A stretch of 45,485 nucleotides of DNA from a virus. Lineage: Duplodnaviria > Heunggongvirae > Uroviricota > Caudoviricetes. A program made the translations under genes and the position numbers. Positions 1-43,465 of the stretch are shown piece by piece. Each line of letters starts with the position of its first letter. Within the stretch, counting starts at the first letter, position 1. The DNA is taken from IMG/VR virus record IMGVR_UViG_2869970738_000006, positions 1 to 45,485 of that record; one strand, given 5' to 3'. The notes beneath the pieces are model-generated. The model was given only the letters and a program-made list of their open reading frames with translations, was not told the origin of the DNA and made no database searches.

Positions 1-662
<662 letters not shown>

Positions 663-663
663 C

Positions 664-2806: not shown

Positions 2807-2832
2807 CTCACGCGCCAGTCTGAGGGCAAAGT

Positions 2833-3264: not shown

Positions 3265-3277
3265 GTATTACCTCCGT

Positions 3278-4030: not shown

Positions 4031-4037
4031 ATCGTCC

Positions 4038-4433: not shown

Positions 4434-4963
4434 CGTTTTATTGCAATCCTCAGTTGTTGTTTCAGCGCGTATGCCAGTTCTTTAGGCAGGCGTTCACGCC
4501 GGATACGGTCAACATTCTCATCAAATGCCTGTTTCAGTGGGGCCGCCATCGGGATTTTCACCACATCAATGGGGTAACGGTTTTTCCCGGCCACACGCTG
4601 CATGACATGCCAGCGACCATTTTTTAATCGCTGAATAAATGCCCGCTGATACCGATGCTGACCGGCTTTAAGTATGCTGTTCGGGCGACGCCCCAGCATC
4701 CTGATCCCCAGCTTAATCACAGGGAGATCACCGCGGTTAACGATAATTTTGGCATTCGGATTTCTGACCGTCGCCCGTTTCAGTCTGGACCGTTCCTTAA
4801 CCAGTTTCCGGCGAACCTTTGTCTCCCGGGCAACCTGTGATGAAGACTGATTAATCGCCGTTGTGGCCACGCGGTTAATGGCCATTGCTGAAGCCGCCGG
4901 AATGGCGTTTTTACGAACCCGGCTCAGATTGTCAATCGCCTGATCAAGCCCTTTTATCGCCAT
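4430..4963 (-). CDS. Tail completion protein Z (copy A)
   Basis: 177-aa ORF, lambda Z-like; overlaps U start. Confidence 0.85.
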   Translation of the reverse strand: MAIKGLDQAIDNLSRVRKNAIPAASAMAINRVATTAINQSSSQVARETKVRRKLVKERSRLKRATVRNPNAKIIVNRGDLPVIKLGIRMLGRRPNSILKAGQHRYQRAFIQRLKNGRWHVMQRVAGKNRYPIDVVKIPMAAPLKQAFDENVDRIRRERLPKELAYALKQQLRIAIKR

Positions 4964-4978
4964 AATTTCACCCTGCGT

Positions 4979-5332
4979 TTATCGTCGCCGGTTAACTGCG
5001 GGTGGTTGACCACGGTTGAGCCAGAGATAACAGCTGCCCCCGTCATCCGGAGAAACACGATCCACCCAGAATATCTCACCATTAATGGTCAGCGTGTCAC
5101 CACGCCGCACGGCACGAACCGTATCCGTCCGCACAAATAATGACGGGCTGCTTCCTTCAATACGGACCCCGCCACCGGTAAACCCCAGCGACTCCGGATC
5201 ATCAAAAACCCCCTGAACTTCGCTGCCACACTGTGCCCCCGAGGTGAACTGCGCACAGAGCCCCATCACTTCAACGATCGTACTGTCTACCCCGGCGAGG
5301 GCAGCATCAAAGGCATTCTGAAAATCACGCAT
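4979..5332 (-). CDS. Head-tail joining protein FII (copy A)
   Basis: 117-aa ORF, lambda FII-like, conserved position. Confidence 0.85.
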   Translation of the reverse strand: MRDFQNAFDAALAGVDSTIVEVMGLCAQFTSGAQCGSEVQGVFDDPESLGFTGGGVRIEGSSPSLFVRTDTVRAVRRGDTLTINGEIFWVDRVSPDDGGSCYLWLNRGQPPAVNRRR

Positions 5333-5708
5333 ATTCAGCCGTTCCGTGCTGTATCATGGCCGTTGCCAGTGATGATGGCACCAGAACACACATACCCCGT
5401 AACGCCAGCTCAACGGGACGACCTGTCTCCGGGCAATACCCCATTACTTGCAGGCACTTCCGTACCCGGACGGCTTTAACATCATCCGGAGCATCCGTGT
5501 TGTTCAACTGCTCACCATCGTCTGTGTGATTTTGATCAGCCCCGCTCTCATCAGAGTGCATAATGCCCTCCGGGGAAACAGCAAGCTCCTCTTCCCACTC
5601 AGACACACGTTGAGCAATATCCGCAGCACTCCCCGACATATCCGCCTCGCGCCCCGGCAGGCCAGCCAGTTGACGAAGACGATTCAGATTTTCTTCTTTT
5701 GTTGCCAT
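5325..5708 (-). CDS. DNA packaging protein FI (copy A)
   Basis: Start taken at MATKEENL preceded by AGGAGG; acidic protein between E and FII. Confidence 0.75.
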   Translation of the reverse strand: MATKEENLNRLRQLAGLPGREADMSGSAADIAQRVSEWEEELAVSPEGIMHSDESGADQNHTDDGEQLNNTDAPDDVKAVRVRKCLQVMGYCPETGRPVELALRGMCVLVPSSLATAMIQHGTAEYA

Positions 5709-5759
5709 CTCAGCCTCCTGTGAAAAAAGACACGGGGGCATTTCGCCCCCGCTCACGGA

Positions 5760-6788
5760 TTATTTCACCTGTACCACCACAAACTCATCCGGATCCGGCA
5801 GCACCATCAGCGGAGCGGACTGCGTCATGGTGAATTCACAGGACGGATCGCCCACGGTCAGCCAGTGTTTCGGGTAACGGGAAGAAGCCACCACTCCTTC
5901 AGACAACGCCTGTGCATCCTTAATGGCACCATAGCAACGAATCCCCTCTGCCGCCGTATTCCCCAGCACCAGCATGCCCTCCGGCAGATAACGTTTTTCG
6001 GTACCGTCCTCTGCCACATAAGACGTTTTCGCCACCACAATGGCCAGATCGCCGTAATACCCCTTGAAGGACACCACTGCGCCCAGATCTTTCACTGCCG
6101 TTTCGAGTTGTGAATTTGAGCCGCGACGGGTATCCAGTTTTTCGCGGAACAGCTTAAAGCCATTCAGCAGACGCCAGACCGTACCGTCCATAATGGCGAT
6201 ATTCACAAGGCCGCTGGCCTGATCGCAGTAGAGGTCAATATCATGCGTCGGATCAAACGTATCACGGTCCTGCTCAGACCATTTTTTACCGTCAGCCTGC
6301 TCAATGTTATTTCCTTCAGAGCGCCCGAAATCCACCTCGACAGTATCAAACTGATCCCCTTCCATGGTGTATTTGCCATACAGCACGGCATTCACCGCCT
6401 GCATTTCTTCCACCTGGACAATGGCGTGCTCTTCCTGTTTGAGGTTATCGGTAATGATACGCAGACGACGGTAGGCCGGGTCGTTCAGCTGAGCCGGATC
6501 TTCACCAGGAAGGCGCTCAACCGCCTGCTGGTAATTAAATTCGTGTTTCGGCTTGACGTAGCCCGGACGTAACACGCGGGTTTCACCACCGCGATGGCGA
6601 AGCACTTTTCCTTCAACGATCGGGGAGACATAGGCCGCCACCGGCGTTTTTCCGGTAATTTTGTCCAGCATCACCTCTTCGGTGTGGAAATTCACCGTAC
6701 GGCGGAAAAACAGCTCCAGAAACAGCGCACGGAATTTCACTTTTTGTTCGGTATAACCGAGTAACTGGCGGGTCGTAAACAATCCCAT
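5760..6788 (-). CDS. Major capsid protein E (copy A)
   Basis: 342-aa ORF, lambda E-like. Confidence 0.95.
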   Translation of the reverse strand: MGLFTTRQLLGYTEQKVKFRALFLELFFRRTVNFHTEEVMLDKITGKTPVAAYVSPIVEGKVLRHRGGETRVLRPGYVKPKHEFNYQQAVERLPGEDPAQLNDPAYRRLRIITDNLKQEEHAIVQVEEMQAVNAVLYGKYTMEGDQFDTVEVDFGRSEGNNIEQADGKKWSEQDRDTFDPTHDIDLYCDQASGLVNIAIMDGTVWRLLNGFKLFREKLDTRRGSNSQLETAVKDLGAVVSFKGYYGDLAIVVAKTSYVAEDGTEKRYLPEGMLVLGNTAAEGIRCYGAIKDAQALSEGVVASSRYPKHWLTVGDPSCEFTMTQSAPLMVLPDPDEFVVVQVK

Positions 6789-6845
6789 AAATCAGTTCCT
6801 TTCATTCAGAAATCAGTCAGGCCACCATGGTGGCCTGATAACGTG

Positions 6846-7193
6846 TTACGGCAGAGCCGCGTGACTCAGGGCTGTGCCGGCAAAGGCATTTGCCTTTTTG
6901 TGTTCATCCACACTGTCAGGCCAGCGGATTGCCTCCGTCGCAAAGGTCCCCGACTTGTAATAGGTCAGCACCGTCTCTGTGCCTTCAAGCGGCAGTACCA
7001 GTATGCCAACCGCACTACCGGCTTTCTGTCCATCCCAGACCACCAGTTTCCCGGTGGCTTCATCCAGCATCAGGGGCGTCAGAGCCGGTGTTGCAGAAGA
7101 AATCCCGCTGCTGCCTGTGGCGGTATGAGCCGGATCATTACCAGCAAAAATACGTACTTCCGCACGCTGTTCAGTGATGGTTTTCGTCACCAT
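6846..7193 (-). CDS. Head decoration protein D (copy A)
   Basis: 115-aa ORF, lambda D-like, between C and E. Confidence 0.9.
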   Translation of the reverse strand: MVTKTITEQRAEVRIFAGNDPAHTATGSSGISSATPALTPLMLDEATGKLVVWDGQKAGSAVGILVLPLEGTETVLTYYKSGTFATEAIRWPDSVDEHKKANAFAGTALSHAALP

Positions 7194-7229
7194 ATTGTTA
7201 AAACCTCGTATTGATGTTCAGCACTGACT

Positions 7230-8735
7230 TCATGGCATGGCCATGAGCATTTTCACGTCCGCATCACCGTCTTCTGATGCCTGTGACACGCCCCCCTGGA
7301 CCGCAGCCGGTGAATGGTTCGCCATGAAATGTTCAAACAGGGCGGTTGTGGATGCAGAGACCGGTTCTGCCTTACCTGATCCCGCAGCCAGCACAGCCCG
7401 GGCGCTCTCCACAGTCATTCCCGGGCAGGCAGCCAGCTGTTCAGCCTGCGCCTCAGCCCCTTTTGCCTCATCCAGTGCCATGATCTGATCACGGAGTGAT
7501 GGTCCGGCATTCGCCTGCGGTGAAGCAGCCAGGATCGGGCGGGCTTTTTCCACCGTCATCTCCGGCATCGCCGCCAGCGTTGCTGCCAGTTGTTCACGAC
7601 CGTTCGCTTCTTCACACGCCATAATGCGATCGGCTTCACTCTGCGCGGATGCCACCGGCTGCTGCGGTGCCGCCGCGGCCAGAATCGCCCGGGCCTGTTC
7701 AACGCTCATGCCCTGTTGCCCTGCCAGCATCGTGGCAAGCTGTTCACGTCCTTTCGCTTCCTGGCATGTCAGGATCCCCATCACTCGCTGGTTCTCCTGC
7801 ACGGCGGCTTCCGTTGCAGTTAATTGCGGCATAGTGCCTCCTCTGACATTACTGTTCAGCGCCGTGGCCATCACACTGATGGCATCCGACGCATTGATTA
7901 ATTCATCCGCCAGCCCGGCCTCAATGCCGGACTGACCTTCAAAAACGGCGGCCTCTGTTCCCGTGACCGCATCCACAGACAACCCGGTATACATCGCCAC
8001 TTTTTCGGCAAACATCCGGTGCGCCGCATCAATCCGCTGCTGCATATCCTGGCGAACCTCTGCCGGCAACGCTTCAAACTGATTGCCATCCACCTTGTGC
8101 GCCCCGGCATAAATCAGCGTGATATCCACACCGGCCTGCGCCAGATGACCGGCATAGCTGACATGGCTCATCATCACGCCAATGGAGCCGATACGGGATG
8201 TCTGGGTAACCAGCCGTCGGGAGCAGGCCGACGCCAGCAGCATGGCTGCAGAACAGGCCGTGTCATTGCACAGTGCCCAGACCGGCTTCTGCTGACGGAG
8301 GCGGTAAATCATGTCAGCGCAGTCAAACGCGCCGGCGGCCTGCCCGCCCGGACTGTCAATGTCCAGCAGTATGCCCCGCACCTGGCTATCTGCCATTGCC
8401 TGCTGAAGACAGGCGACAATGCCGTCATAGCCAGTCATTCCGGAAAATGGCCGCATCCCCCCCAGCCGGTGCACCAGCGTGCCGGTCACCGGCAGTACCG
8501 CAATACCGTTCACCACCCGGTAAACACGGGCCGGTCGTTTACCTCCGGCCATGTACTCGTCCGTTTCAGCCAGCATTCCGGGAGCATCAAGCTGTACCTG
8601 CTGTTGTGGTACCGAAAGACTTGCTGCGCCCATCTCGCGCCCGAGCGCGCAAAAGAAAACCCGCGCATAGGCGGGCTCCAGAAGCAGCGGTTCATTGAAT
8701 GCTGCGGCAATAATGTGTGAAAGATTACGTCTCAC
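7230..8735 (-). CDS. Head maturation protease/scaffold (lambda C/Nu3-like, ClpP/S49-type), copy A
   Basis: 501-aa ORF with serine-protease core and C-terminal threefold ~40-aa repeat. Confidence 0.9.
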   Translation of the reverse strand: MRRNLSHIIAAAFNEPLLLEPAYARVFFCALGREMGAASLSVPQQQVQLDAPGMLAETDEYMAGGKRPARVYRVVNGIAVLPVTGTLVHRLGGMRPFSGMTGYDGIVACLQQAMADSQVRGILLDIDSPGGQAAGAFDCADMIYRLRQQKPVWALCNDTACSAAMLLASACSRRLVTQTSRIGSIGVMMSHVSYAGHLAQAGVDITLIYAGAHKVDGNQFEALPAEVRQDMQQRIDAAHRMFAEKVAMYTGLSVDAVTGTEAAVFEGQSGIEAGLADELINASDAISVMATALNSNVRGGTMPQLTATEAAVQENQRVMGILTCQEAKGREQLATMLAGQQGMSVEQARAILAAAAPQQPVASAQSEADRIMACEEANGREQLAATLAAMPEMTVEKARPILAASPQANAGPSLRDQIMALDEAKGAEAQAEQLAACPGMTVESARAVLAAGSGKAEPVSASTTALFEHFMANHSPAAVQGGVSQASEDGDADVKMLMAMP

Positions 8736-10316
8736 GTGGTGTTGTCTCCTCTTCCGGCCTGCGACTCTCCGCTATCTGCTGCTGATACGCCTGCGCTATC
8801 CACACCGGACGTGAGAGTCCGGCTTTTTCCCGCTCTGCAGATTCCCTGACCTGCTGGCGGAAAATGTCCTGATAATCCTCGCCCATCAGCGCCAGCTCTT
8901 TCTCATACGTGCTCAGTCCGGCCTCAATGCGCATCACTGATTCCTGAACCTCCTTGAGCCCGTCAATGGCCATTCTTCCGGCTCCAATCCACTCAGCCCG
9001 TGACCAGGCTGATCGCGCCTGATAAAAATCAAAACGTGCCCGTGGCGGACGAATAATCCCCGAAGAAGTGCCTCTTCCAGCCAGCAGGAAAACATCTGCG
9101 TGGCCAGCCGGGACGCAATAAATTTTCGCCGCCCCATAAAATAGCGCCACGACTCATTGGCGGATGCGCGGGCACTTGAATAACTGACCTTCGAGTAATC
9201 ACGGGACAACTGTTCGTAGGAAACGCCAAGACCGGCGGCGATATACCGCAGCAGCGCCTGTTCAAGCGCCGAAAATCCATTGTCTGAATCCTGCGCGGTC
9301 TGAAGTTTCAGATCATCACCGGGGAAAAGGTGCGGAATTTTGACACCGCCCAGCGTCACGCTATTCGTGTCATACCAGGTGGAGAACTTATCCAGAATAT
9401 TAATAAGCGGATTATCCTTCTGCCCCTGCGGCGCACCGGCGATATATTCAAAGGCCTTTTCGGTATCAAGGTCACTTTCAATCGTCGCTGCATACATCGC
9501 CTTCACTATGGCCGACTGAAGCTGTGTTGCCTGCAGGGAATCGAGCATCTTCAGCCGTTCCATTACGCTGTAAAACTGATTGGCCCCACGGGTCTGCCCG
9601 TCCTCCACCGGCTCGAAAATATGCAGCATGGCCGGACGCCCGGTGGGAAGTTCACGCGGGATCCGTTCCCATCGTCCACTCCCAGAGAACGGAAAATCAT
9701 CCTCACAGATATGGTACGCAACGGCACGACCATATCGATCGACCTCCACACCGGCCCGCAGAAAACGGTTCCCCATACCGTGTCCTGGCGTGTCCACCCG
9801 TTTCGGACTCACGGCTTTAAAACGCGTACGAAACAGTTGCGTGCTCTCCGTATCCCAGACCGGCTGCACAAAGATTTCGCCGTTAAACGCATGAACGCCC
9901 ACACCTTCACGAATAAATTCCGTAAACGTGCGTTTCTCTTCCACGTCGATCTCGCCAAACATCCCTTCGGCGTATTCCGACCAGGCCGCCTCCACCTCAT
10001 CGACAAAACTTTTTGCCGCAGTCTCCCGCATCCCCAGCCAGCGCCAGTTCGGACGGTAGCTGATCAGAAACATATGCCCGACAATATGATCCTTATGCAG
10101 GGCCACCGCATTGGCCGCTATCCCGTTATTGCGCACCAGATCATCTGCCCGGGCATTCCCCAGACGCAACGCAGGCAGCAGGGCTGCATCGGCACTCTGC
10201 GCCGGTGGCAACCACTCCGCCATTTGCCCACCAAATCCTGCGCCGCCCCCGTTGTAGCTGAGACTCTCACGAAGCGGAACGCCGTTCACATCAATCAGGA
10301 CAGGCGTTCGTTTCAT
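8725..10316 (-). pseudogene. Portal protein B (copy A), apparent -1 frameshift at a C4 run 9058-9061
   Basis: 460-aa ORF is lambda B-like but its C-terminus goes out of frame; the conserved C-terminus (..ARSAWS..RMAIDGLKEVQ) continues in the overlapping 141-aa ORF. Confidence 0.8.
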
Positions 10317-10519
10317 AACCTCACTCCCAGCGGACGACGGCGACGTCGGGTTGTCCCCAGTACCGACTCCGCATCATTGATCGCCCGGTTAAGCTCATCC
10401 AGAGAAGCCGCCGTATATTCAATTCTGCGACCATCTTTCTGGACAGACACCACCCGTTTACCGGTTAATAAATCAAGGCGTGCCTGACGCAGCGCCTGTA
10501 GTTCAGCGACTGTAACCAT
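10313..10519 (-). CDS. Head-tail connector protein W
   Basis: 68-aa ORF with lambda W-like motif TGKRVVSVQKDGRRIEY. Confidence 0.85.
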   Translation of the reverse strand: MVTVAELQALRQARLDLLTGKRVVSVQKDGRRIEYTAASLDELNRAINDAESVLGTTRRRRRPLGVRL

Positions 10520-12430
10520 TCACTCCTCCGGACAGCTTCGCTGCCAGTTCTTTAAGGGTTGGCCGGGTCGTCTCTTCTTCCCGGGATTTTGCCAGTACAG
10601 CCAGATCAAGCTGCCAGCGTTGCACGGACACACGTAATGCCGCGTAGGCATACACCAGGCAGTCCAGCGCTTCGTTACGCCGCTTTTTGTTATCCCACAG
10701 CAGACGCATCTTTCCTTTTTCCCACTTCTCCACAAGCTCTTCCGCGACCAGTTGCTGCGCCTCTGTCTGCGAAAAAATCTCCGGATCATCAGGAAAACGG
10801 ATGGCATACGACGTGGCTTCATCCGCAGGCGTGGGATCGGCTTTCATACGGGCATAGAGAATTTCTTTTGCGGTGTCCGTCCCCACTTCACACAGATACA
10901 CGCCCCGCTGATTGCGGGTTTTCGGCATGGTGATCACCGGCTTGCCATAGACAGATGCGCCTTTTACCGGCAGCACCCGGAAAACACCGTGTTTTTTTGA
11001 CCTCTGATAGACAATTTCACCATCGATCCCCCGGTGTCCCAGCAGACACGGGAAATGGTCATTTCGGTTCCGTCTGCATGGCAGTATTTTTTGTTGATCG
11101 CCGCATCCACACGTAACAGCGTCTCTTCCTCATCGGGACGGCCCATAATGATGATTTTATCCACCAGAAAAGCTTCCTCTCCCGGTGCCCATCCCCAGAC
11201 ATACATCTCAAAACGGTTTCGCTGCGAGTCAATGCCCGCCGTCAGATAAACCACCCGGGCAGGTACCGCCGCCGTGTAATGCACGACCTTATCCATCAGT
11301 ACCTGGTGATCGAGTTTTTCGCCCACGGCTTCTTCCCAGGTCTCGCCCAGCGTGGTGTTCACAAAGGTTTTCAGGCCGTTGGGATCTTTCAGTGCATCCA
11401 GCCAGTCATAGACTATCTGTACCCAGGTGGTAAACGGACTGTACGCCGTCCAGATATGGAACGTGATGGAGCGCGGCGGCGGAATTTCATTACCCGCAGC
11501 GCTGAAAAACGTCAGACCGTCACGGGTCCACATGCCCGTGTTTTCACAGATCCACCGCCCGTTGCTCTGGTCCAGTTCAGACTGATGGATCACGCAGCCA
11601 TGATGTTCACAGAGGTAGAAAACACTTTCGGGACTGTCCTTCTCCCATTTAAGCCCAAAAGGCGTGGACTCATCGCCAAATTTCAGATACTGCTCCTCCC
11701 CACAGTGTGGGCAGGGCACATAAAAACGCATAAAATGCGCCGACTCGTTGGCCGCTTTTTCGATCTGGCAGGTGCCTTTGATTTTAGGCGTCGAGCCGCG
11801 AATGGATTTGGGCCATACAGAGCCCTCAATACGTTTATCCCCCAGCAGGGTTGGCGAACCCTCTTTTTCGACATCCGGTTCGAACGAGGAAAGTTCGTCA
11901 TAGCAGACCACGTCCACGGATTTTTCACGGTAGTTTTTAGCGGCAGCCCCGCCCAGGCACCAGAAGCCCACGCCCGATGAAAAACGTTTCAGCGTGAGGG
12001 TATTATCACGATGTTTACGACCCAGCCATGGGGAAAGGTCTTTCAGGCATGGCACATCCCGAATCGTCGCCTCCACGTGAGACTTCATAAAATCTTCAGC
12101 GGCAGAATCCGTGGGCTGAAAAAGCAGACTGTTTCGTGATTTATGCTCAATAAAATACCCGACCACCCCCAGCAACATCTTTGTATAGCCAACACGGGCA
12201 GATTTAATCAGGTTAACCGTGCGAACCTGGTCGTTACCCATACAGTTCATAATGGCGACCTGGAACGGCAGCGTTTTCCATTCTCCCTCACCATATGAAG
12301 ATTCTTTAGGCAGATAATAATTTTGATCAGCCCATTCAACTGGCGTCACCGGCAATGCCCTTATCAGGGGCTGTAATGCTGTTGTGACAGCACTCATCAT
12401 ATTATTCAGTTGTTGCTCTGATATATTCAT
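10503..12430 (-). pseudogene. Terminase large subunit (lambda A-like), frameshift at a C5 run 11028-11032
   Basis: 507-aa ORF matches the A N-terminus and ATPase; conserved C-terminal nuclease part (..KGASVYGKPV..) is in the neighbouring 157-aa ORF. Confidence 0.85.
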
Positions 12431-33763: not shown

Positions 33764-36371
33764 CGCCCGCTCCCCGATAACAGACCGCCATCACGCAACT
33801 GCAGCCGGAGCTCATCCTGCGCACCTTTACGGGCCATCTCATACACCGCTTTCATCAGCTGCGGCCCTGCCTGCCCGTTGGGGCCGTCGTTCTGAATCAC
33901 CACGTGATTGTTCTGATTAAAATTAATGCCTTCGGCCCGCCGCATCTGCGCCGGACTTCCGGCACCGCCGACATAACCACCTTCCGCATACCCGCGCATC
34001 AGACGATACAGGTTGCCGACACCAATCCGGCTGGTCGCCTCCTTCGTGAAGACAAACTCCCCGCGATGGACAATCCCCGCAGGCTCATATTTGCCGCCCG
34101 TCCCCGTAAATCCTCCGGTCGCGAAATGGAAGTTCGCCGCCGCAGCCTGAATGGCCGTCCCCGTGGAAGCGGATGCGCCACCACCGAAAGCACCACCAAT
34201 GGCGCTGCCGATACGCCCGACAATCCCCACCATCGCCTGCTTCAGAAAAATCTCTGTCAGCATGGAGAGCACGGAACGGGTGAAACCACGCCAGTTCTGT
34301 TCGCTGCCGGTCAGCATCGCCGCCATATTCTGTGCAATACCGTCAAAGGTCTGCGTGGCCACACTTTTTACCTGCGAAAAACTGTCCGTCGCACTTTCCG
34401 CCCACTCGCCCCAGCCGGACTTCATCCCGGCCATCCAGCTTCCACGAAGCTGCTCCTCCGCAGACCAGGTGTTCTTCAGTGCAGATGTGGCCTTCGCCAG
34501 CGCAGCCGGATTATCACCGTACACCTCACGAAGGCGCTGCTCTTCCGACTCCCGCTGCGCCTGACGGTCGGTGAGTCCGCGGGCTTTTGCGCTGATTGCC
34601 GCCTGCTTCGCGCTCTGCTGCTGTTCAAACCGCGCCGCCTGCTGTGCCAGCTCATTCAGCCGCTTCTGGTGTTCAATCTTGTCTCCCAGCTCAGCCAGCT
34701 GGCGTTTGTACTCCAGCGTCTCTTTCTCATGAGCCAGCAGGGATTTTTCCTGCCAGGATAACTGCCGTTTCGTGGCAGCCTCTTTCAGGACCGCATACTG
34801 ACTTTCCGCCTTCCATAAATCACGGCGCTGCCGGCTGATTTTCTCATTCGCACCGCTGTGTTTTTCCAGCGTCCTGAGCTCAGCTTCAAGGGCAAGCAGA
34901 GCCTCTCTTGCCTGCTCCTCTTCCCTCTCCCCGGCAGAGCGCGTTTTCGGTGATGTATGCTTTTTACCTGTCAGCTCTTCAGCCAGACGGCTGACGGCTT
35001 CCTGCTGCCCAAGACCTTTGCTGACGCCTGTTGCACGCGAGCGGTTGATGTACCCCATTTCCCCCTGGCGTATACGCGCATCCCGTTCCGCAATGGATTT
35101 TCTCAGCGCCAGTTCATCGCGTTTTGTTTTCTCAATAAATACGCGGTTCTCTTCTGCCAGTTCACCAAACAACGCACCAACGCCGGGCACATTCTTTGTC
35201 GTTTCCCAGGCTGACTGAATAAATTCAGCCAGCGCCAGATCCCCCTGCACAAGCAGCAGCTTCACCTGTTCAACGGTTCCGGCCACCACGTCAGTGATCA
35301 GACTGAGTGCCCCCAGTGTATGATCACCTATCCATGCCCATGCGTCAGAAGTCCAGGTTTTAACATCGTCCCAGATTTTTTCCACCGGCGTGGCCGCTTT
35401 ATCAAGTTGCTCCAGACGTGCATTCATGACATCCGCAAACAGGGACATCGCCTCCGTCACCGCAGCCTGTTTACCTTTCGTGCGCTCAAGCTCATCAATA
35501 TGGCGTAACTGGGAAACGCTCAGGAAGTTATACTGCTGATTCAGGGAGGCCAGCGCCTTCACCGGATCTGCTGCAATCCCTTCAAAGGCTTTTTCCACCT
35601 TCCCGGCATCGTCCCCCACCGTCTGCAGCCATCTCTGAGAGGTTTCCCCCATGATCCGTAGCTGCCCGGCGGTATATTTCCCGCTTTCTGCCAGACGGGC
35701 CAGATTTTCTGCCGCCTGTCTGATACCACCACCGGCTTCATCGCTGATCACCCCGGCCATTTTCCACAATTCTGCCGTTGTGGTGGCAGCCGCCCCTCCG
35801 GTCAGGATCAGTGAACGCAATAAGGCCCGGTCAGCCTGCTCTGCCTGCCAGGCGGCGACAGCAAGCGCGGCCAGTACGGCAACCCCGCCACCTGCCGCCA
35901 CACGGACCACCGACATAAATCGTCCCAGCTCACCGGCATTCCGGGCATTTTCAGCCAGTGCATTTGCCGTATCTGACAGCGACTCCTCTGATGATTCAGA
36001 GGCATCCCTGATCCCGAGAAGTTCCTCCTTCAGCAGGGTAAGCAGGCTGAGCGGTTCACCGAATGAATCGCTGATCTGCCCCCCTGCTGCAGCATGATAA
36101 GGAAGGGATTCTGACCACCGGCAAGCTGAGTGACAATATCCGTGAACTGTGCGGGCAGTGTGCGCATGGCAGCCTTATACTGTCCGACTGATATCCCGGC
36201 TTTTTGTGCAGCCAGCGCCTGTCGGCTCAGCCCCTGTTCAACAGTACTGGCGGTTTTTCTGGCATCCGCCTCCAGACTGGAAAAATGACGGCGTACCCGG
36301 GCCATCTGTTCATCAAACCGGGCCGCATCCAGACTCAAATCAATAACCAGATCACCCGCTGGCTGGGACAT
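33760..36371 (-). pseudogene. Tail tape measure protein (H-like), copy B: apparent 1-nt deletion in a C6 run at 36079-36084
   Basis: N-terminal ~95 aa in ORF 36030-36371; rest in 718-aa ORF; the adjacent frame reads ..LQQGGQISDSFGE.. continuously into the long ORF. Confidence 0.8.
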
Positions 36372-36765
36372 ATCTCACACCTCCGGAAATCCCCGCTGAA
36401 GCCATCATTAATGCAACATCATCCTCGCTGACATCCACCACATTCGCAGAAGGTGAAATATCGCGCCCTCCGTCCCCTCCGAACCGGACGCCTCCGGCAA
36501 CTCCTGTCGCTTTCTGCATCAGCATTTCTTCCTCGTCCGGCATCTCCGTCTGCTCTTCCTCACACGCTGGAGCAAGCAGACTGAAATCCGCCGGATGCAT
36601 ATCCGGATCGCCAAAAAACAGGCTGAGTACGGCGTACATCAGCCCGGAAAAATGAGCGTCCAGTTGGGTATCCTGAAAATAATGCGTGCAGTAAAAACGT
36701 CGCCAGTCGGCATATTCGGTGGATGTCATCCCGGCAAGCATGGCGCGCCAGTCGGGTCTCCCCAT
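36352..36765 (-). CDS. Tail assembly chaperone T-frame segment (copy B)
   Basis: 137-aa ORF homologous to copy A T; T frame closed by a stop at 36790-36792 upstream. Confidence 0.7.
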   Translation of the reverse strand: MGRPDWRAMLAGMTSTEYADWRRFYCTHYFQDTQLDAHFSGLMYAVLSLFFGDPDMHPADFSLLAPACEEEQTEMPDEEEMLMQKATGVAGGVRFGGDGGRDISPSANVVDVSEDDVALMMASAGISGGVRYVPASG

Positions 36766-37183
36766 CTCTCGCGCCAGTTTCAGGACAAGTTACCGGCTCA
36801 GTCGCTTCTGCTTTCCCGGTTTGTTCAGGATCGGCATCGTGCCGGTTATCCAGCATACCTGAAAGATAAAGCACCCGGTTCGTTGCCTGATTCAGTGCAT
36901 CAGCAGGCCATCCCAGCATCACTTCACGGCGGATCTGCTGCATCTCTGTCTCCGGAGAGGCCAGAGTGCCTTTGAGGGAATGGGTATGCCATAGCGACAT
37001 CGCCACAAGCAGGGATGCCGTTTCCAGATATCGCTGGTTAATGTGCACGACATCATGCTTCGTTGTCTCCTGTTGTTCTGCGTCTGAAACAAACTTTATA
37101 TAATCAAACCGCTGCAGCGCAGACAATTCGGAAAGCGTGACAGACACACCGTTATATTCAAATTGTTCTGTTTTCAGAAACAT
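36560..37183 (-). CDS. Tail assembly chaperone G (copy B) with aberrant 3' end: reads through ~75 extra codons, no in-register slippery site
   Basis: First ~130 aa G-like; middle and 3' part diverge from copy A; GGGAAAG at 36811-36817 is in GGG AAA register. Confidence 0.6.
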   Translation of the reverse strand: MFLKTEQFEYNGVSVTLSELSALQRFDYIKFVSDAEQQETTKHDVVHINQRYLETASLLVAMSLWHTHSLKGTLASPETEMQQIRREVMLGWPADALNQATNRVLYLSGMLDNRHDADPEQTGKAEATEPVTCPETGARDGETRLARHACRDDIHRICRLATFLLHALFSGYPTGRSFFRADVRRTQPVFWRSGYASGGFQSACSSV

Positions 37184-37196
37184 GTATTACCTCCGT

Positions 37197-37949
37197 TTAC
37201 CCTGCAGCGCCCGCTTCAGTAACGGTGACTTCAGCCACTGCGGCGAACTGACCATTTCCGCTCACCACAAGGATCTGCACCTTACCTGTCGCCACGCCGT
37301 TTACCGTAATTGTCATATCTTTCACACTAATGGTGGCTTTCGACGGATCGGCGGAAACCGCTCTGAACGTCTTGTCGGTTGCACTTTCCGGCTCAAAAGA
37401 AACCGTCAGGGTGGTTGTTTTCCCTTTTGCCACCGTACCGGATGTCGGCGTCACCTTAATCGCACTGACCGGCGTAATTTTGCTGCGTTCTTCCGCTACA
37501 GAAGGTTTACCCACGTTAGTGACTTTCACCGTGCGGGTGATCACTTCTTTCGCCGTCACGGCCTTACCGATACTGCTGACCCAGCCACGAAACACATCCA
37601 CCGTGCCATTCGGAAAACGGATTTTATAGGCCCGGACATCGCCGCTTTCAAACCAGCCTATAAGCCCTTTCTGGCCTTCCTCTCCCGGTTTCCAGGCCAG
37701 CGTAAAACTGGTATCACCTGCAGATTTCTGCCCCTGCCCGGTCGCGTTCCAGTCCGCGTCTTCATCATCCAGGTAGTTATCATCGTAGGATTCTGCCGTC
37801 ATCTCGCCCGGCGTCAGATCCTTCACCTTAGCCAGTCGCTGCCAGTCATCGTCTGACAACGGGTTTGCATAAGCATCACCCTTGCCGTTGTAAACCCACA
37901 GAGTGGTACCGGCACCTTTTACCGGCTCAAGGGGATTTGGTGTTGCCAT
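37197..37949 (-). CDS. Major tail protein V (copy B)
   Basis: Near-identical to copy A V. Confidence 0.9.
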
Positions 37950-37956
37950 ATCGTCC

Positions 37957-38352
37957 TCACATCTCGTATGTAATGGAATAAGTCAGATCTGCAGAACTCC
38001 ATAACGCCATATCGTCATCACGACGATACTCATAGCCCTGCGTAACCATCGTGGTAATCAGTCCTGCCAGTGCCGGGATCGCAGTCATCGCCGGGTAAAT
38101 CCGGCTTTCCATCCACTGATCAAGCTCTGAATCCGGTACCTGTGCCGGTAAAAACACCTCAATATGCAGCGTGGCCCGCCAGGTATCTGCATCCAGCTCT
38201 TCACCGGTATACTCTGCATCCGTCAGATAAACCGCGATCGCAGGAAAATCCTCTTCGTCAAAAACAACGGGGCGACCATCAAACAGCGTCGCCCCGTGTT
38301 CATGCTGCTCGAGTGCATCCAGCACTGCGGCACGAATGTCAGTGTGTTTCAT
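37957..38352 (-). CDS. Tail terminator protein U (copy B)
   Basis: Identical protein to copy A U. Confidence 0.9.
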
Positions 38353-38924
38353 CGTTTTATCGCAATCCTCAGTTGTTGTTTCAGCGCGTATGCCAGTTCT
38401 TTAGGCAGGCGTTCACGCCGGATACGGTCAACATTCTCATCAAATGCCTGTTTCAGTGGGGCCGCCATCGGGATTTTCACCACCTGAATGGGAAGGCGAT
38501 TACGCTTTTTCCTTCCCTTGTCGTCATTGCCCTCCTCATATCTGGCCTGGGGAAGACGTTGCATAACATGCCAGCGCCCATTATTTAATCGCTGGATAAA
38601 TGCCCGCTGATAACGATGCTGACCGGCTTTAAGTATGCTGTTCGGACGACGTCCCAGCATTCTGATCCCCAACTTAATCACAGGGAGATCACCGCGGTTA
38701 ACGATAATTCTGGCATTCGGATTTCTGACCGTCGCCCGTTTCAGTCTGGACCGTTCCTTTACCAGTTTCCGTCTCACCCTGGTTTCCCGGGCAACCTGTG
38801 ACGAAGACTGATTAATCGCCGTTGTGGCCACGCGGTTAATCGTCATTGCTGAAGCCGCCGGAATGGCGTTTTTACGAACCCGGCTCAGATTATCAATCGC
38901 CTGATCAAGCCCTTTTATCGCCAT
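38349..38924 (-). CDS. Tail completion protein Z (copy B), 14-aa insertion relative to copy A
   Basis: 191 aa versus 177 aa; extra segment LPQARYEEGNDDKGRKKRNR. Confidence 0.85.
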   Translation of the reverse strand: MAIKGLDQAIDNLSRVRKNAIPAASAMTINRVATTAINQSSSQVARETRVRRKLVKERSRLKRATVRNPNARIIVNRGDLPVIKLGIRMLGRRPNSILKAGQHRYQRAFIQRLNNGRWHVMQRLPQARYEEGNDDKGRKKRNRLPIQVVKIPMAAPLKQAFDENVDRIRRERLPKELAYALKQQLRIAIKR

Positions 38925-38939
38925 AATTTCACCCTGCGT

Positions 38940-39293
38940 TTATCGTCGCCGGTTAACAGCGGGTGGTTGCCCACGGTTGAGCCAGAGATAACAGCTTCCC
39001 CCGTCATCCGGAGAAATACGATCCACCCAGAACATCTCGCCGTTAATGGTCAGCGTGTCACCACGCCGCACGGCACGCACCGTATCCGTCCGCACAAATA
39101 ATGACGGGCTGCTTCCTTCAATACGGACCCCGCCACCGGCAAAACCCAGCGACTCCGGATCGTCAAAAACCCCCTGAACTTCGCTTCCACGCTGTGCTCC
39201 CGAGGTGAACTGCGCACAGAGCCCCATCACTTCAACAATCGTGCTGTCCACCCCGGCAAGGGCAGCATCAAAGGCATTCTGAAAATCACGCAT
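38940..39293 (-). CDS. Head-tail joining protein FII (copy B)
   Basis: Near-identical to copy A. Confidence 0.85.
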   Translation of the reverse strand: MRDFQNAFDAALAGVDSTIVEVMGLCAQFTSGAQRGSEVQGVFDDPESLGFAGGGVRIEGSSPSLFVRTDTVRAVRRGDTLTINGEMFWVDRISPDDGGSCYLWLNRGQPPAVNRRR

Positions 39294-39669
39294 GCTCAGC
39301 CGTTCCGTGCTGTATCATGGCTGTCGCCAGTGGTGATGGCACCATAACACGCATGCCCCGGTACGTCAGTTCAACGGGACGGCCTGTCTCCGGGCAATAC
39401 CCCATCACATGCAGGCATTTCCGCACACGGACCGCTTTAACATCATCCGTAGCATCCGTGTTGTTCAACTGCTCACCATCGTCTGTGTGATTTTGATCAG
39501 CCCCGCTCTCATCAGAGTGCATAATGCCCTCCGGGGAAACAGCAAGCTCCTCTTCCCACTCAGACACACGTTGAGCAATATCCGCAGCACTCCCCGACAT
39601 ATCCGCCTCGCGCCCCGGCAGGCCAGCCAGTTGACGAAGACGATTCAGATTTTCTTCTTTTGTTGCCAT
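39286..39669 (-). CDS. DNA packaging protein FI (copy B)
   Basis: Near-identical to copy A; start at MATKEENL. Confidence 0.75.
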   Translation of the reverse strand: MATKEENLNRLRQLAGLPGREADMSGSAADIAQRVSEWEEELAVSPEGIMHSDESGADQNHTDDGEQLNNTDATDDVKAVRVRKCLHVMGYCPETGRPVELTYRGMRVMVPSPLATAMIQHGTAEHA

Positions 39670-39720
39670 CTCAGCCTCCTGTGAAAAAAGACACGGGGGC
39701 ATTTCGCCCCCGCTCACGGA

Positions 39721-40749
39721 TTATTTCACCTGTACCACCACAAACTCATCCGGATCCGGCAGCACCATCAGCGGTGCGGACTGCGTCATGGTGAATTCAC
39801 GGGCCGGATCGCCCACAGTCAGCCAGTGTTTCGGATAACGGGAAGAGGCCACCACACCTTCGGACAACGCCTGCGCATCCTGAATGGCACCATAGCAACG
39901 AATGCCCTCTGCTGCCGTATTCCCCAGGACCAGTGTGCCCTCCGGCAGATAACGTTTTTCGGTACCGTCCTCTGCCACATAAGACGTTTTCGCCACCACA
40001 ATGGCCAGATCGCCGTAATACCCCTTGAAGGACACCACCGCCCCCAGGTCTTTCACTGCCGTTTCGAGTTGTGAATTTGAGCCGCGACGGGTATCCAGTT
40101 TTTCGCGGAACAGCTTAAAGCCATTCAGCAGACGCCAGACCGTACCGTCCATAATGGCGATATTCACAAGGCCGCTGGCCTGATCGCAGTAGAGGTCAAT
40201 ATCATGCGTCGGATCAAACGTATCACGGTCCTGCTCAGACCATTTTTTACCGTCAGCCTGCTCAATGTTATTTCCTTCAGAGCGCCCGAAATCCACCTCG
40301 ACAGTATCAAACTGATCCCCTTCCATGGTGTATTTGCCATACAGCACGGCATTCACCGCCTGCATTTCTTCCACCTGGACAATGGCGTGCTCTTCCTGTT
40401 TGAGGTTATCGGTAATGATACGCAGACGACGGTAGGCCGGGTCGTTCAGCTGAGCCGGATCTTCACCAGGAAGGCGCTCAACCGCCTGCTGGTAATTAAA
40501 TTCGTGTTTGGGCTTGACGTAGCCCGGACGTAACACGCGGGTTTCACCACCGCGATGGCGAAGCACTTTTCCTTCAACGATCGGGGAGACATAGGCCGCC
40601 ACCGGCGTTTTTCCGGTAATTTTGTCCAGCATCACCTCTTCGGTGTGGAAATTCACCGTACGGCGGAAAAACAGCTCCAGAAACAGCGCACGGAATTTCA
40701 CTTTTTGTTCGGTATAACCGAGTAACTGGCGGGTCGTAAACAATCCCAT
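39721..40749 (-). CDS. Major capsid protein E (copy B)
   Basis: 342 aa, a few substitutions versus copy A. Confidence 0.95.
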   Translation of the reverse strand: MGLFTTRQLLGYTEQKVKFRALFLELFFRRTVNFHTEEVMLDKITGKTPVAAYVSPIVEGKVLRHRGGETRVLRPGYVKPKHEFNYQQAVERLPGEDPAQLNDPAYRRLRIITDNLKQEEHAIVQVEEMQAVNAVLYGKYTMEGDQFDTVEVDFGRSEGNNIEQADGKKWSEQDRDTFDPTHDIDLYCDQASGLVNIAIMDGTVWRLLNGFKLFREKLDTRRGSNSQLETAVKDLGAVVSFKGYYGDLAIVVAKTSYVAEDGTEKRYLPEGTLVLGNTAAEGIRCYGAIQDAQALSEGVVASSRYPKHWLTVGDPAREFTMTQSAPLMVLPDPDEFVVVQVK

Positions 40750-40806
40750 AAATCAGTTCCTTTCATTAAGAAATCAGTCAGGCCAACGCGGTGGCCTGAT
40801 AACGTG

Positions 40807-41154
40807 TTACGGCAGCGCCGCGTGACTCAGGGCTGTGCCGGCAAAGGCATTTGCCTTTTTGTGTTCATCCCCACTGTCAGGCCAGCGGATTGCCTCCGTC
40901 GCAAAGGTCCCCGACTTGTAATAGGTCAGCACCGTCTCTGTGCCTTCAAGCGGCAGTACCAGTATGCCAACCGCACTACCGGCTTTCTGTCCATCCCAGA
41001 CCACCAGTTTCCCGGTGGCTTCATCCAGCATCAGGGGCGTCAGAGCCGGTGTTGCCGAGGAAATCCCGCTGCTGCCTGTGGCGGTGTGAGCCGGATCATT
41101 ACCGGCAAAAATACGTACTTCCGCACGCTGTTCAGTGATGGTTTTCGTCACCAT
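40807..41154 (-). CDS. Head decoration protein D (copy B)
   Basis: 115 aa, near-identical to copy A. Confidence 0.9.
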   Translation of the reverse strand: MVTKTITEQRAEVRIFAGNDPAHTATGSSGISSATPALTPLMLDEATGKLVVWDGQKAGSAVGILVLPLEGTETVLTYYKSGTFATEAIRWPDSGDEHKKANAFAGTALSHAALP

Positions 41155-41190
41155 TTTGTTAAAACCTCATATTGATGGTCAGCACTGACT

Positions 41191-42696
41191 TCATGGCATG
41201 GCCATGAGCATTTTCACGTCCGCATCACCGTCTGCTGACGTCTGTGACACGCCACCCCGCACCGCTGCCGGTGAATGATTCGCCATGAAATGTTCAAACA
41301 GGGCGGTTGTGGATGCAGAGACCGGTTCGGCCTTACCTGATCCCGCAGCCAGCACAGCCCGGGCGTTCTCCACGGTCATTCCCGGGCAGGCCGCCAGTTT
41401 TTCAGCCTGCGCTTCTGCCCCTTTTGCCTCATCCAGGGCCATGATCTGATCACGAAGTGAGGGCCCGGCATCCGCCAGTGGTGCAGCCGCCAGGATCGGG
41501 CGGGCTTTTTCCACCGTCATCTCCGGCATCGCCGCCAGCGTTGCCGCCAGTTGTTCACGACCGTTCGCTTCTTCACACGCCATAATGCGATCGGCTTCAC
41601 TCTGCGCGGATGCCACCGGCTGCTGCGGTGCCGCCGCGGCCAGAATCGCCCGGGCCTGTTCAACGCTCATGCCCTGTTGCCCTGCCAGCATCGTGGCAAG
41701 CTGTTCACGTCCTTTCGCTTCCTGGCATGTCAGGATCCCCATCACTCGCTGGTTCTCCTGCACGGCGGCTTCCGTTGCAGTTAATTGCGGCATAGTGCCT
41801 CCTCTGACATTACTGTTCAGCGCCGTGGCCATCACACTGATGGCATCCGACGCATTGATTAATTCATCCGCCAGCCCGGCCTCAATGCCGGACTGACCTT
41901 CAAAAACAGCGGCCTCTGTTCCCGTGACTGCATCAACAGACAGACCGGTAAACATCGCCACTTTTTCGGCAAACATCCGGCGCGCCGCATCAATCCGCTG
42001 CTGCATGTCCTGGCGAACCTCTGCCGGCAACGCTTCAAACTGATTGCCATCCACCTTGTGCGCCCCTGAGTAAATCAGCGTGATATCCACACCGGCCTGC
42101 GCCAGATGACCGGCATAGCTGACATGGCTCATCATCACGCCAATGGAACCGATACGGGATGTCTGGGTAACCAGCCGTCGGGAGCAGGCCGACGCCAGCA
42201 GCATGGCCGCAGAACAGGCCGTGTCATTACACAGTGCCCAGACCGGCTTCTGCTGCCGGAGGCGGTAAATCATGTCAGCGCAGTCAAACACGCCGGCTGC
42301 CTGCCCGCCCGGACTGTCAATGTCCAGCAGTATGCCCCGCACCTGGCTATCTGCCATTGCCTGCTGAAGACAGGTGACAATGCCGTCATAGCCAGTCATT
42401 CCGGAAAATGGCCGCATCCCCCCCAGCCGGTGCACCAGCGTGCCGGTCACCGGCAGTACCGCAATACCGTTCACCACCCGGTAAACACGGGCCGGTCGTT
42501 TACCTCCGGCCATGTACTCGTCCGTTTCAGCCAGCATCCCGGGAGCATCAAGCTGTACCTGCTGTTGCGGTACCGAAAGACTTGCTGCCCCCATCTCGCG
42601 CCCCAGCGCGCAAAAGAAAACCCGCGCATAGGCGGGCTCCAGAAGCAGCGGTTCATTGAATGCTGCTGCAATAATGTGTGAAAGATTACGTCTCAC
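41191..42696 (-). CDS. Head maturation protease/scaffold C/Nu3-like (copy B)
   Basis: 501 aa, near-identical to copy A. Confidence 0.9.
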   Translation of the reverse strand: MRRNLSHIIAAAFNEPLLLEPAYARVFFCALGREMGAASLSVPQQQVQLDAPGMLAETDEYMAGGKRPARVYRVVNGIAVLPVTGTLVHRLGGMRPFSGMTGYDGIVTCLQQAMADSQVRGILLDIDSPGGQAAGVFDCADMIYRLRQQKPVWALCNDTACSAAMLLASACSRRLVTQTSRIGSIGVMMSHVSYAGHLAQAGVDITLIYSGAHKVDGNQFEALPAEVRQDMQQRIDAARRMFAEKVAMFTGLSVDAVTGTEAAVFEGQSGIEAGLADELINASDAISVMATALNSNVRGGTMPQLTATEAAVQENQRVMGILTCQEAKGREQLATMLAGQQGMSVEQARAILAAAAPQQPVASAQSEADRIMACEEANGREQLAATLAAMPEMTVEKARPILAAAPLADAGPSLRDQIMALDEAKGAEAQAEKLAACPGMTVENARAVLAAGSGKAEPVSASTTALFEHFMANHSPAAVRGGVSQTSADGDADVKMLMAMP

Positions 42697-43465
42697 GTGG
42701 TGTTGTCTCCTCTTCCGGCCTGCGACTCTCCGCTATCTGCTGCTGATACGCCTGCGCTATCCACACCGGACGTGAGAGTCCGGCTTTTTCCCGCTCTGCA
42801 GATTCCCTGACCTGTTGGCAGAAAATGTCCTGATAATCCTCGCCCATCAGCGCCAGCTCTTTCTCATACGTGCTCAGTCCGGCCTCAATGCGCATCACTG
42901 ATTCCTGAACCTCCTTGAGCCCGTCAATGGCCATTCTTCCGGCTCCAATCCACTCAGCCCGTGACCAGGCTGATCGCGCCTGATAAAAATCAAACCGTGC
43001 CCGTGGCGGACGAATAATCCCCGAAGAAGTGCCTCTTCCAGCCAGCAGGAAAACATCTGCGTGGCCAGCCGGGACGCAATAAATTTTCGCCGCCCCATAA
43101 AATAGCGCCACGACTCATTGGCGGATGCGCGGGCACTTGAGTAACTGACCTTCGAGTAATCACGGGACAACTGTTCGTAGGAAACGCCAAGACCGGCGGC
43201 GATATACCGCAGCAGCGCCTGTTCAAGCGCCGAAAATCCATTGTCTGAATCCTGCGCGGTCTGAAGTTTCAGATCATCACCGGGGAAAAGGTGCGGAATT
43301 TTGACACCGCCCAGCATCACGCTATTCGTGTCATACCAGGTGGAGAACTTATCCAGAATATTAATAAGCGGATTATCCTTCTGCCCCTGCGGCGCACCGG
43401 CGATATATTCAAAGGCCTTTTCGGTATCAAGGTCACTTTCAATCGTCGCTGCATACATCGCCTTT
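42686..43465 (-). pseudogene. Portal protein B (copy B): 5' ~270 codons missing (homology to copy A ends about 43465) and same C4-run frameshift at 43019-43022
   Basis: ORFs 42895-43458 and 42686-43111 match the copy A portal C-terminal half; upstream sequence unrelated. Confidence 0.8.

Follow-up and report, generated by a model that had tools for sequence, protein, structure and literature searches.

Frameshifted genes in two prophage fragments of Shigella boydii ATCC BAA-1247 very probably mix cytosine-run consensus errors with ordinary prophage decay

The window, the whole stretch of 45,485 nucleotides that was analysed, is part of the chromosome of Shigella boydii ATCC BAA-1247 (CP026795.1); strand for strand, its position x lies at x + 2,212,072 in that record. 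In it, ruvC-aspS-yecD is flanked by two IS-truncated lambdoid prophage fragments, A and B, and yecD itself is interrupted by an IS. An earlier note on this DNA had listed frameshifts in the terminase, both portal copies, lom, the tape measure of prophage B and a ykgJ-like gene, and had treated them as one class that is either real or artefactual. The features are, by position:

1-654: IS3-family rve ORF, beside fragment A
663-12534, minus strand: lambdoid prophage fragment A, with IS elements at both ends; tape measure (N-terminal 454 aa), T, G, V, U, Z, FII, FI, E, D, C, portal, W, large terminase, truncated small terminase
8725-10316, minus strand: portal gene A, apparent frameshift at C4 9058-9061, C5 in other assemblies
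10503-12430, minus strand: large terminase (gpA) gene, apparent frameshift at C5 11028-11032, C6 in other assemblies
12617-13792: IS110-family transposase, beside fragment A
22466-22469, plus strand: C4 run at the IS/yecD junction, the right end of an IS110-family element inserted in yecD, C5 in other genomes
24326-24650, plus strand: ykgJ-like (CxxCxxCC) pseudogene with two one-base frame changes
25080-43464, minus strand: prophage fragment B, adjoining yecD; gp38-like adhesin, stf, lom', J, I', K, L, M, H, T, G', V, U, Z, FII, FI, E, D, C, partial portal
26978-27567, minus strand: lom (Ail/Lom) pseudogene, 10-bp deletion with junction at 27258-27261, split into 103 + 93 aa
33760-36371, minus strand: tape measure gene of prophage B, frameshift at C6 36079-36084, C7 in intact alleles
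36560-37183, minus strand: G' ORF of 207 aa, 31-nt deletion at about 36789/36790
42686-43464, minus strand: portal B C-terminal fragment, apparent frameshift at C4 43019-43022, C5 in other assemblies

Fragment A aligns to E. coli prophages in a single piece at 97.9-99.2% identity and is truncated by IS elements at 663 and 12534. Fragment B is 94-99% identical to E. coli O145 RM9872; its tail end next to yecD has the same junction in O104:H4, and an IS3-family element truncates it at 43464. The elements that cut the two prophages belong to the IS3, IS110, IS66 and IS1 families. Both prophages are defective through this truncation, whatever the status of the C-run lesions. The earlier view that both copies are defective is correct, but its cause is not: the defect lies in the IS truncation of A and B, together with the loss of the G-T frameshift cassette in B.

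The genome of S. boydii CDC 3083-94 (CP001063.1), a strain that may be the same as ATCC BAA-1247, is the source of all ACD-series protein accessions resolved here. Treating this record as the same clone as the window was given up, since the two differ in prophage B by 12 substitutions in 13.4 kb and their distal tail regions are swapped. CP001063.1 serves here as a close relative only, and not as a second sequence of one clone. Substitutions at 31247, 31469, 31890, 35858, 39617 and 42298 in prophage B are private to the window and absent from other assemblies; at these positions either the strain or the assembly is idiosyncratic.

The four C-runs of the phage structural genes lie where the earlier note had placed them (CCCC at 9058-9061 and 43019-43022, CCCCC at 11028-11032 and CCCCCC at 36079-36084), and each is exactly one C short of its intact E. 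coli homologues, which have C5, C5, C6 and C7, respectively. Intact ancestral forms were identified for the portal (530 aa), terminase (642 aa), tape measure (870 aa) and Lom (199 aa), and for the ykgJ-like gene as a stitched CxxCxxCC domain.

In portal gene A the C4 run divides the ORF into 460 and 141 aa. The run is C5 in E. coli references, in the Logan contig of SRR8186700 and in CP026762.1, and addition of one C yields a 530-aa protein identical to ACD06878.1, which is found on 11 contigs. The 460-aa truncated product occurs, among about 15 billion proteins, in CP026795.1 only. The C4 state of portal A is thus most likely an assembly-private undercall, and the true state would be C5. The terminase gives the same picture. 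Here the C5 run divides the ORF into 507 and 157 aa, C6 is present in the comparison loci L001-L003 and L017 and in the SRR8186700 contig (L019), and with the C restored the protein equals the 642-aa ACD08087.1 / WP_012421407.1 of S. boydii CDC 3083-94, letter for letter. The window's contig is the longest source of the 500-aa truncated terminase product, for which there is no other source among about 15 billion proteins. The terminase C5 run, too, is most likely private to this assembly and undercalled, with C6 as the probable true state.

The portal B fragment is divided into 187 and 141 aa. Eight assemblies have C5 at this site (CP041513.1, Logan SRR15361493, CP001063.1, CP026762.1, CP026814.1, CP026867.1, PTES01 and AMJS01), and the unshifted 257-aa product (ACD06323.1 / SPZ88596.1) is found on 107 contigs. 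The shifted 187-aa product is restricted to four (CP026795.1, CP026797.1, CP026866.1 and CP026872.1), which differ in size and prophage structure and share an accession block, CP026795-CP026872. The lesion hence tracks submission batch and not phylogeny. We consider the portal B call most likely an undercall specific to that block, the true state again being presumably C5. Both portal copies carry the same C4, since the alignment between copies A and B is free of gaps (97.0% identity over 4,909 nt). The earlier note took this identity, should the lesion be real, to mean that the copies diverged after the mutation. That claim finds no support; the shared local sequence context explains the identical call better.

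Comparison with independently assembled sequence speaks to the nature of these calls. We assume that Logan contigs derive from accurate short reads. The SRR8186700 contig aligns to window positions 635-12410 over 11,776 bases with no mismatch; the only two gaps are an additional C in the contig at 9058 and another at 11028. Against CP026762.1, gaps occur only at the same two sites over 21,365 nt. The extra C and the intact ORFs that a comparison with related genomes should reveal if the shifts are artefacts are therefore seen at the terminase and both portals, in archive-read contigs and in CDC 3083-94. Conversely, the same lesion in independent assemblies, as expected of a genuine pseudogene, was not found for portal A, portal B or the terminase. 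Over 23 kb of sequence from independent assemblies, each of the three assembly-private indels lies within one of the 32 C/G runs of at least 5 bases, and none lies in the roughly 93 A/T runs of at least 5 bases or elsewhere. This clustering is far from chance. The flanking chromosome has no indels in 9 kb against CP026762.1, and ruvC-aspS has none in 4.3 kb against E. coli. Sister assemblies show the same type of lesion at higher density, with 20 extra one-base deletions in 19.4 kb of CP026872.1 and 4 in 6.8 kb of CP026866.1, every one of them in a C/G run of 4-7 bases. Sporadic minus-one calls at the portal and terminase sites of unrelated complete E. coli genomes, 2 of about 1,850 and 3 of about 1,713, respectively, also count in favour of the artefact; the two retrieved examples are annotated 'frameshifted'. 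In the literature on how CP026795.1 was sequenced we found the strain name and no platform description; the label long-read undercall is suggested by the error pattern.

A further private C-run undercall, the fourth, lies at 22466-22469 and was absent from the earlier list. Five other covering assemblies, including CP001063.1, read CTCCCCCG at this IS/yecD junction, where the window has CTCCCCG. The 123-aa ORF that results from the C4 run is found on 8 contigs, all from NCBI records and none from Logan. Like the calls in portal A, the terminase and portal B, this one alters the length of a homopolymer run by a single base.

The remaining lesions are of a different kind. The lom lesion was correctly located near 27256-27260, but its cause is not a homopolymer: 10 bp are lost between 3-bp ACG repeats, TTCACG[CGTACAGACG]GCC, and the intact 199-aa lom genes in L002 and L007 retain them. 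The 103-aa product is found on at least 28 contigs, and in 10 of these the site aligns to the window without gaps, including Logan SRR28368849 and ERR182142 and four drafts (LPTM01, LPTS01, AMKD01 and AMKE01). The lom lesion is a real pseudogene mutation, a microhomology deletion. In the ykgJ-like gene the frame changes lie in the T4 run at 24371-24374 and at about 24555/24556. The earlier claim that two changes are needed holds, and the three frames, once stitched, match PF03692 (the CxxCxxCC domain) over its full length (positions 1-85 of 85, E = 7e-11). Both sites have identical sequence in E. coli cM8a and NMBU-W12E19, and RefSeq labels the gene 'frameshifted' in these two and in O104:H4 C227-11. 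The ykgJ-like lesions are old and real. Absence from independent assemblies, seen for portal A, the terminase and portal B, is thus not seen for lom or the ykgJ-like gene.

The G-T region of copy B carries a further deletion. Alignment to E. coli O145 (L002) reveals that the missing 31 nt included the stop codon of G as well as A_AAA_AAG, the slippery heptamer of programmed G-T frameshifting. The resulting 207-aa G' product is an exact match to ACD07415.1 of CDC 3083-94 and occurs on 109 contigs, Logan contigs included, and the deletion of copy B is real. In copy A, G-T retains a genuine site for programmed frameshifting (G_GGA_AAG, at about 2851-2857).

The tape measure gene of prophage B is the most difficult case. 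Its C6 run divides the ORF into 113 and 718 aa. C7 gives an intact 870-aa tape measure in E. coli O145 and in CP001063.1, and the gene is intact in most S. boydii. The 870-aa protein (ACD07867.1) occurs on 102 contigs, and A172V is all that distinguishes it from the repaired protein of the window. C6 together with the same 113-aa fragment is found in CP041513.1, in Logan SRR15361493, SRR5312128 and ERR200271, and in the draft GCA_013998195.1. The C7/C6 tract is thus polymorphic among S. boydii isolates on two SNP backgrounds, archive-derived contigs included, and the C6 allele is genuine and recurrent in this species. For the window itself the closest haplotypes conflict. Its SNP-haplotype relatives CP001063.1 and PTES01 carry C7 and therefore point towards an artefact, while the draft GCA_013998195.1, of similar haplotype, carries C6 and hence points back towards a real change. 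We lean towards a real C7-to-C6 slip in this strain; a fifth undercall would look alike in this assembly.

Taken together, the lesions very probably are a mixture of two unrelated things, consensus errors at C-runs and the ordinary decay of Shigella prophages. The assembly would be one C short at four runs (portal A at 9058, terminase at 11028, portal B at 43019 and the IS/yecD junction at 22466), and the portal and terminase genes would be unshifted in the organism itself. The portal 'lesion' would be seen twice because both copies share the local sequence GAATAATCCCCCGAAG, in which a context-dependent undercall would recur; it is seen again in three sister assemblies of the accession block. 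That the errors cluster in prophage DNA probably reflects the several near-identical lambdoid prophages of this genome, since such repeats would leave fewer uniquely mapped polishing reads. A methylation motif as the cause was considered and rejected; GATC adjoins the terminase run, but neither GATC nor CCWGG is present at the portal run. The part ascribed to decay would comprise the ACG...ACG 10-bp deletion in lom, the two old one-base deletions in the ykgJ-like cargo gene, the 31-nt loss of the G-T slippery site in prophage B and the IS truncation of both prophages. The treatment of all lesions as one class consequently stands as artefact for the terminase and both portals, and fails for lom, the ykgJ-like gene and probably tape measure B.

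Alternatively, all one-base losses might be real replication slippage at G/C runs during the history of ATCC BAA-1247 or its passage in the laboratory. G/C runs are slippage hot spots, the tape-measure tract does vary in S. boydii on more than one SNP background, and the affected genes lie in defective prophages without selection. We nevertheless regard this reading as unlikely. Two indels and zero substitutions against the SRR8186700 contig over 11.8 kb is a ratio that is rare for real divergence, and a mismatch-repair mutator was likewise rejected as the origin because the indels are unaccompanied by substitutions. Independent slips at the same run would be needed in both portal paralogues, and the portal B allele, which 107 contigs lack, is confined to four strains that differ in structure and have nothing but an accession block in common. 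In the sister assemblies the same type of lesion is dense enough to split essential phage genes everywhere.

A broader form of this idea is more doubtful still. It holds that G/C runs in lambdoid portal, terminase and tape-measure genes are slippage hot spots that repeatedly and independently inactivate Shigella and E. coli prophages, the short alleles being real minority or clonal variants. The one part of it that found support is the tape-measure C7/C6 tract on its two SNP backgrounds. The recurrence of the same minus-one alleles at the same runs in unrelated E. coli, and the variation of the tape-measure tract among close relatives, could also speak for heterogeneity of tract length within the culture, similar to phase variation, with assemblies reporting differing majority lengths. 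This seems very improbable to us. Known phase-variable tracts are longer than the 5-6 bases found here, the recurrences affect no more than about 0.1-0.2% of genomes, those of portal B follow submission batch and not phylogeny, length variants of portal and terminase are confined to long complete-genome records, and IS-truncated prophages leave no function to switch.

That every listed lesion is artefactual, those of lom, the ykgJ-like gene and the tape measure included, hardly merits belief. Several homopolymer errors are demonstrable in the window; against this, the lom deletion is not a homopolymer event and is present in at least 10 other assemblies, archive-derived contigs and drafts among them, unrelated E. 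coli have the very same ykgJ-like shifts, and tape-measure C6 is found in three Logan contigs and one draft. Programmed ribosomal frameshifting of the lambda G-T kind at the portal and terminase sites can be set aside with near certainty, since only their place in phage structural genes and the true G-T site in copy A speak for it, while thousands of homologues, those in about 1,850 E. coli genomes among them, have an additional C and one unbroken ORF each, a two-frame arrangement is not conserved, and no X_XXY_YYZ slippery heptamer lies at the sites.

The mixture of C-run consensus errors and ordinary decay has mainly practical value, and the underlying biology is ordinary. Residual homopolymer indels in long-read-only assemblies inflate pseudogene counts. 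In CP026795.1 and its sister Shigella records, C/G-run undercalls would in this way inflate both the number of pseudogenes counted and the number of prophages claimed to be inactive, CP026872.1 and CP026866.1 being much worse than CP026795.1. The decay lesions can already be seen in public records, for instance as the 207-aa 'minor tail protein' ACD07415.1 of CDC 3083-94.

The undercalls resemble the residual homopolymer indels of long-read-only bacterial assemblies in several respects. They are single-base deletions only in G/C runs of at least 5 bases, independent assemblies (drafts, archive-derived contigs and CDC 3083-94) lack them, the same contexts recur within the batch, and they lead to 'frameshifted' annotations. 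Their density here, 4-5 in 45 kb with every one in prophage or IS DNA, is far below that of sister records, for instance CP026872.1. With the lambda G/GT programmed -1 frameshift the locus shares the lambda-type site retained in copy A, and A_AAA_AAG serves this purpose in the E. coli relative of copy B; in contrast to that system, the C-run lesions are not programmed sites, and in copy B the slippery site is deleted. In Shigella, the decay of prophages through IS elements and deletions is well known. IS-cut prophages, an IS-split yecD and small inactivating deletions common to S. boydii isolates are found here as well, and lom, the ykgJ-like gene, G-T and probably the tape measure fit this pattern with no difference in kind.

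Four C-runs in the window are each one C shorter than in intact E. coli prophage references, at exactly the positions where the earlier note had placed frameshifts. Judged from sequence comparison, three of these four frameshifts, plus a further site at 22466-22469, are most likely consensus errors of the assembly.

C-run lengths in the window and in intact references
Portal A, 9058-9061: window C4, references C5
Terminase, 11028-11032: window C5, references C6
Tape measure B, 36079-36084: window C6, references C7
Portal B, 43019-43022: window C4, references C5

The window lies on the same strand as the Shigella boydii chromosome CP026795.1 (GCA_002950275.1, 4,575,738 bp), given in two papers as strain ATCC BAA-1247, where the record position is the window position plus 2,212,072. 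Every phage gene is on the minus strand.

Layout of the window
1-662: IS3-family element
663-12534, minus strand: prophage fragment A, from the N-terminal half of the tape measure gene to the large terminase, then a truncated small terminase
12617-13792: IS110-family element
14085-16474: IS66-family element
16562-16678: IS1 end remnant
16679-21014: chromosomal yebB'-ruvC-yebC-nudB-aspS-yecD'
21015-22465: IS110-family element within yecD
22861-23628: IS1
23629-25079: dinI-like gene and ykgJ-like pseudogene
25080-43464, minus strand: prophage fragment B, from the tail fibre genes to the C-terminal half of the portal gene
43465 onward: IS3-family element

The head and tail genes common to both fragments are 97-99% identical, and 4595-9503 aligns to 38556-43464 with 146 mismatches and no gaps. 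The earlier note expected defective prophages if the frameshifts were real; both are defective whatever the status of the frameshifts, large parts having been lost to IS elements. The 117-nt IS1 remnant is 95.7% identical to 23512-23628, the end of the complete IS1, and borders the chromosomal segment, which begins within yebB; this arrangement points to a possible IS1-mediated deletion or rearrangement.

Independent relatives were found with a lineage-specific query, the IS-truncated 454-aa tape-measure fragment of copy A, which retrieved a Logan read-archive contig (SRR8186700) and the complete genome CP026762.1. Over window 635-12410 the Logan contig has no mismatch, and the sole differences are two single extra Cs, one at 9058 and the other at 11028. 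CP026762.1 carries these two extra Cs as well, together with five substitutions; no other indel is seen in 21,365 nt of alignment, 9 kb of flanking chromosome included. Once the two Cs are inserted, the portal (530 aa) is identical in every residue to ACD06878.1 and the terminase (642 aa) to ACD08087.1, which is titled 'phage terminase large subunit (GpA) [Shigella boydii CDC 3083-94]'. The truncated 460-aa portal is found on one contig only, CP026795.1, and neither it nor the 500-aa terminase product occurs elsewhere among about 15 billion proteins. By these comparisons, the portal A and terminase frameshifts are to be regarded as private to CP026795.1. The same one-base losses occur sporadically in unrelated complete E. 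coli genomes (2 of ~1,850 at the portal run, 3 of ~1,713 at the terminase run); the two examples fetched, RM12522-C8 (portal) and 95-3192 (terminase), are both annotated 'frameshifted'.

At portal B, the run is C5 in CP041513.1, Logan SRR15361493, CP001063.1 (S. boydii CDC 3083-94), CP026762.1, CP026814.1, CP026867.1, PTES01 and AMJS01. Contigs with the unshifted 257-aa fragment (ACD06323.1, SPZ88596.1) number 107, Logan contigs among them. Only four have the shifted 187-aa product: CP026795.1, CP026797.1, CP026866.1 and CP026872.1, all NCBI complete genomes from one accession block. These strains are unlike in genome size and prophage structure, so the distribution of the allele reflects the batch and not descent. 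The idea that the portal copies diverged after a shared mutation is thus not supported, the identical lesion being better explained by identical sequence context.

The fourth private undercall (a run one C short in the consensus), at the junction of yecD with the right end of its IS110-family element (22466-22469), had escaped the earlier note. The window has C4 and five other assemblies, including CP001063.1, have C5; the 123-aa ORF that the undercall creates is found in NCBI records only. Across the 23 kb covered by the Logan contigs SRR8186700 and SRR15361493, with 32 C/G runs and about 93 A/T runs of at least 5 bases, all three indels sit in C/G runs. The chromosomal ruvC-aspS segment has no indel against E. 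coli. Compared with the window, further one-base deletions number 20 over 19.4 kb in CP026872.1 and four over 6.8 kb in CP026866.1, all within C/G runs of 4-7 bases; J, the S49 protease gene, the capsid gene and others are split. We infer long-read undercalling from this error pattern, and its clustering in prophage DNA plausibly reflects fewer uniquely placed reads in repeats. The practical value lies in a caution: pseudogene counts are inflated in this block of Shigella reference assemblies. Such deletions reach up to about one per kb in CP026872.1, CP026866.1 and PTES01000001.1, where FII and the tape-measure gene are also broken and pseudogene counts are unreliable. CP041513.1 has C3 at window 40021-40024, where the window and a Logan contig have C4; its major capsid gene is cut to 309 aa, probably by an error of that record.

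Relative to CP001063.1, CP026762.1 and CP026814.1, the chromosome CP026795.1 has a swap of distal tail modules (K-I-J-lom-stf) between two inverted prophages that lie about 175 kb from each other, at window 31100-32120 (I-K region) and record positions 2,409,009-2,429,752; CP026872.1 has the same arrangement. The swap would imply either an inversion via recombination in L/K/I or a mis-join. Tail assembly protein I ends after 205 aa because a private substitution at 31467-31469 creates a stop codon. This 205-aa form is not found in the protein collection; the 226-aa form is on 413 contigs. In gene J, a nine-substitution patch with a compensating +1/-1 indel pair (28958-28981) differs from all ~15 other S. 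boydii contigs covering it; gene conversion with a different J-like copy as donor is one possible cause, paralogue reads mixed into the consensus another. At 38631 and 39617, unlike nearly all other assemblies, copy B has the base of its own copy A (4670, 5656), which suggests gene conversion or polishing cross-talk. For the other private substitutions (31247, 31890, 35858, 42298), copy A offers no such source.

For tape measure B, the C6 run and its 113-aa product recur in CP041513.1, three Logan contigs and the draft GCA_013998195.1, which makes C6 a genuine allele. The intact 870-aa protein (ACD07867.1) is on 102 contigs, CP001063.1 among them; A172V is its sole difference from the repaired window protein. 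The SNP background places the window with the C7 assemblies CP001063.1 and PTES01 and also with the C6 draft. We lean towards C6 being real in the window; an artefact is quite conceivable, since the CP026795.1 assembly has undercalls of its own.

The suspected signature of homopolymer artefacts holds for portal A, terminase and portal B, where independent assemblies have the extra C, and fails for lom and the ykgJ-like gene. The lom lesion was placed correctly, near 27256-27260, and is no homopolymer event but a 10-bp deletion between ACG repeats; the resulting 103 + 93 aa split, with the same DNA junction, is in ten other assemblies, including Logan SRR28368849, ERR182142 and four draft records. 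Both frame changes reported in the ykgJ-like gene are needed, and the three stitched frames span the whole CxxCxxCC domain. E. coli cM8a and NMBU-W12E19 have the same sequence at both sites, and the gene is annotated as frameshifted in these and in O104:H4. The C7 run at 24513-24519 within this pseudogene is variable, with C6 in cM8a and CCCTCCCC in NMBU-W12E19. In the G-T cassette of prophage B, 31 nt, ATCAAAAAAGCATTCGAAGGCGAGCTGAACT, are deleted at 36789-36790. With them went the stop codon of G and the A_AAA_AAG -1 slippery site, and G therefore extends to 207 aa in the wrong frame of T (G' ORF 36560-37183, minus strand; ACD07415.1), a lesion common to 109 contigs including CDC 3083-94. Copy A retains the lambda-type G_GGA_AAG at about 2851-2857. 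The lom, ykgJ-like and G-T lesions are real. Apart from the likely consensus errors, the lesions are ordinary Shigella prophage decay that public records already show, and nothing here is new in kind.
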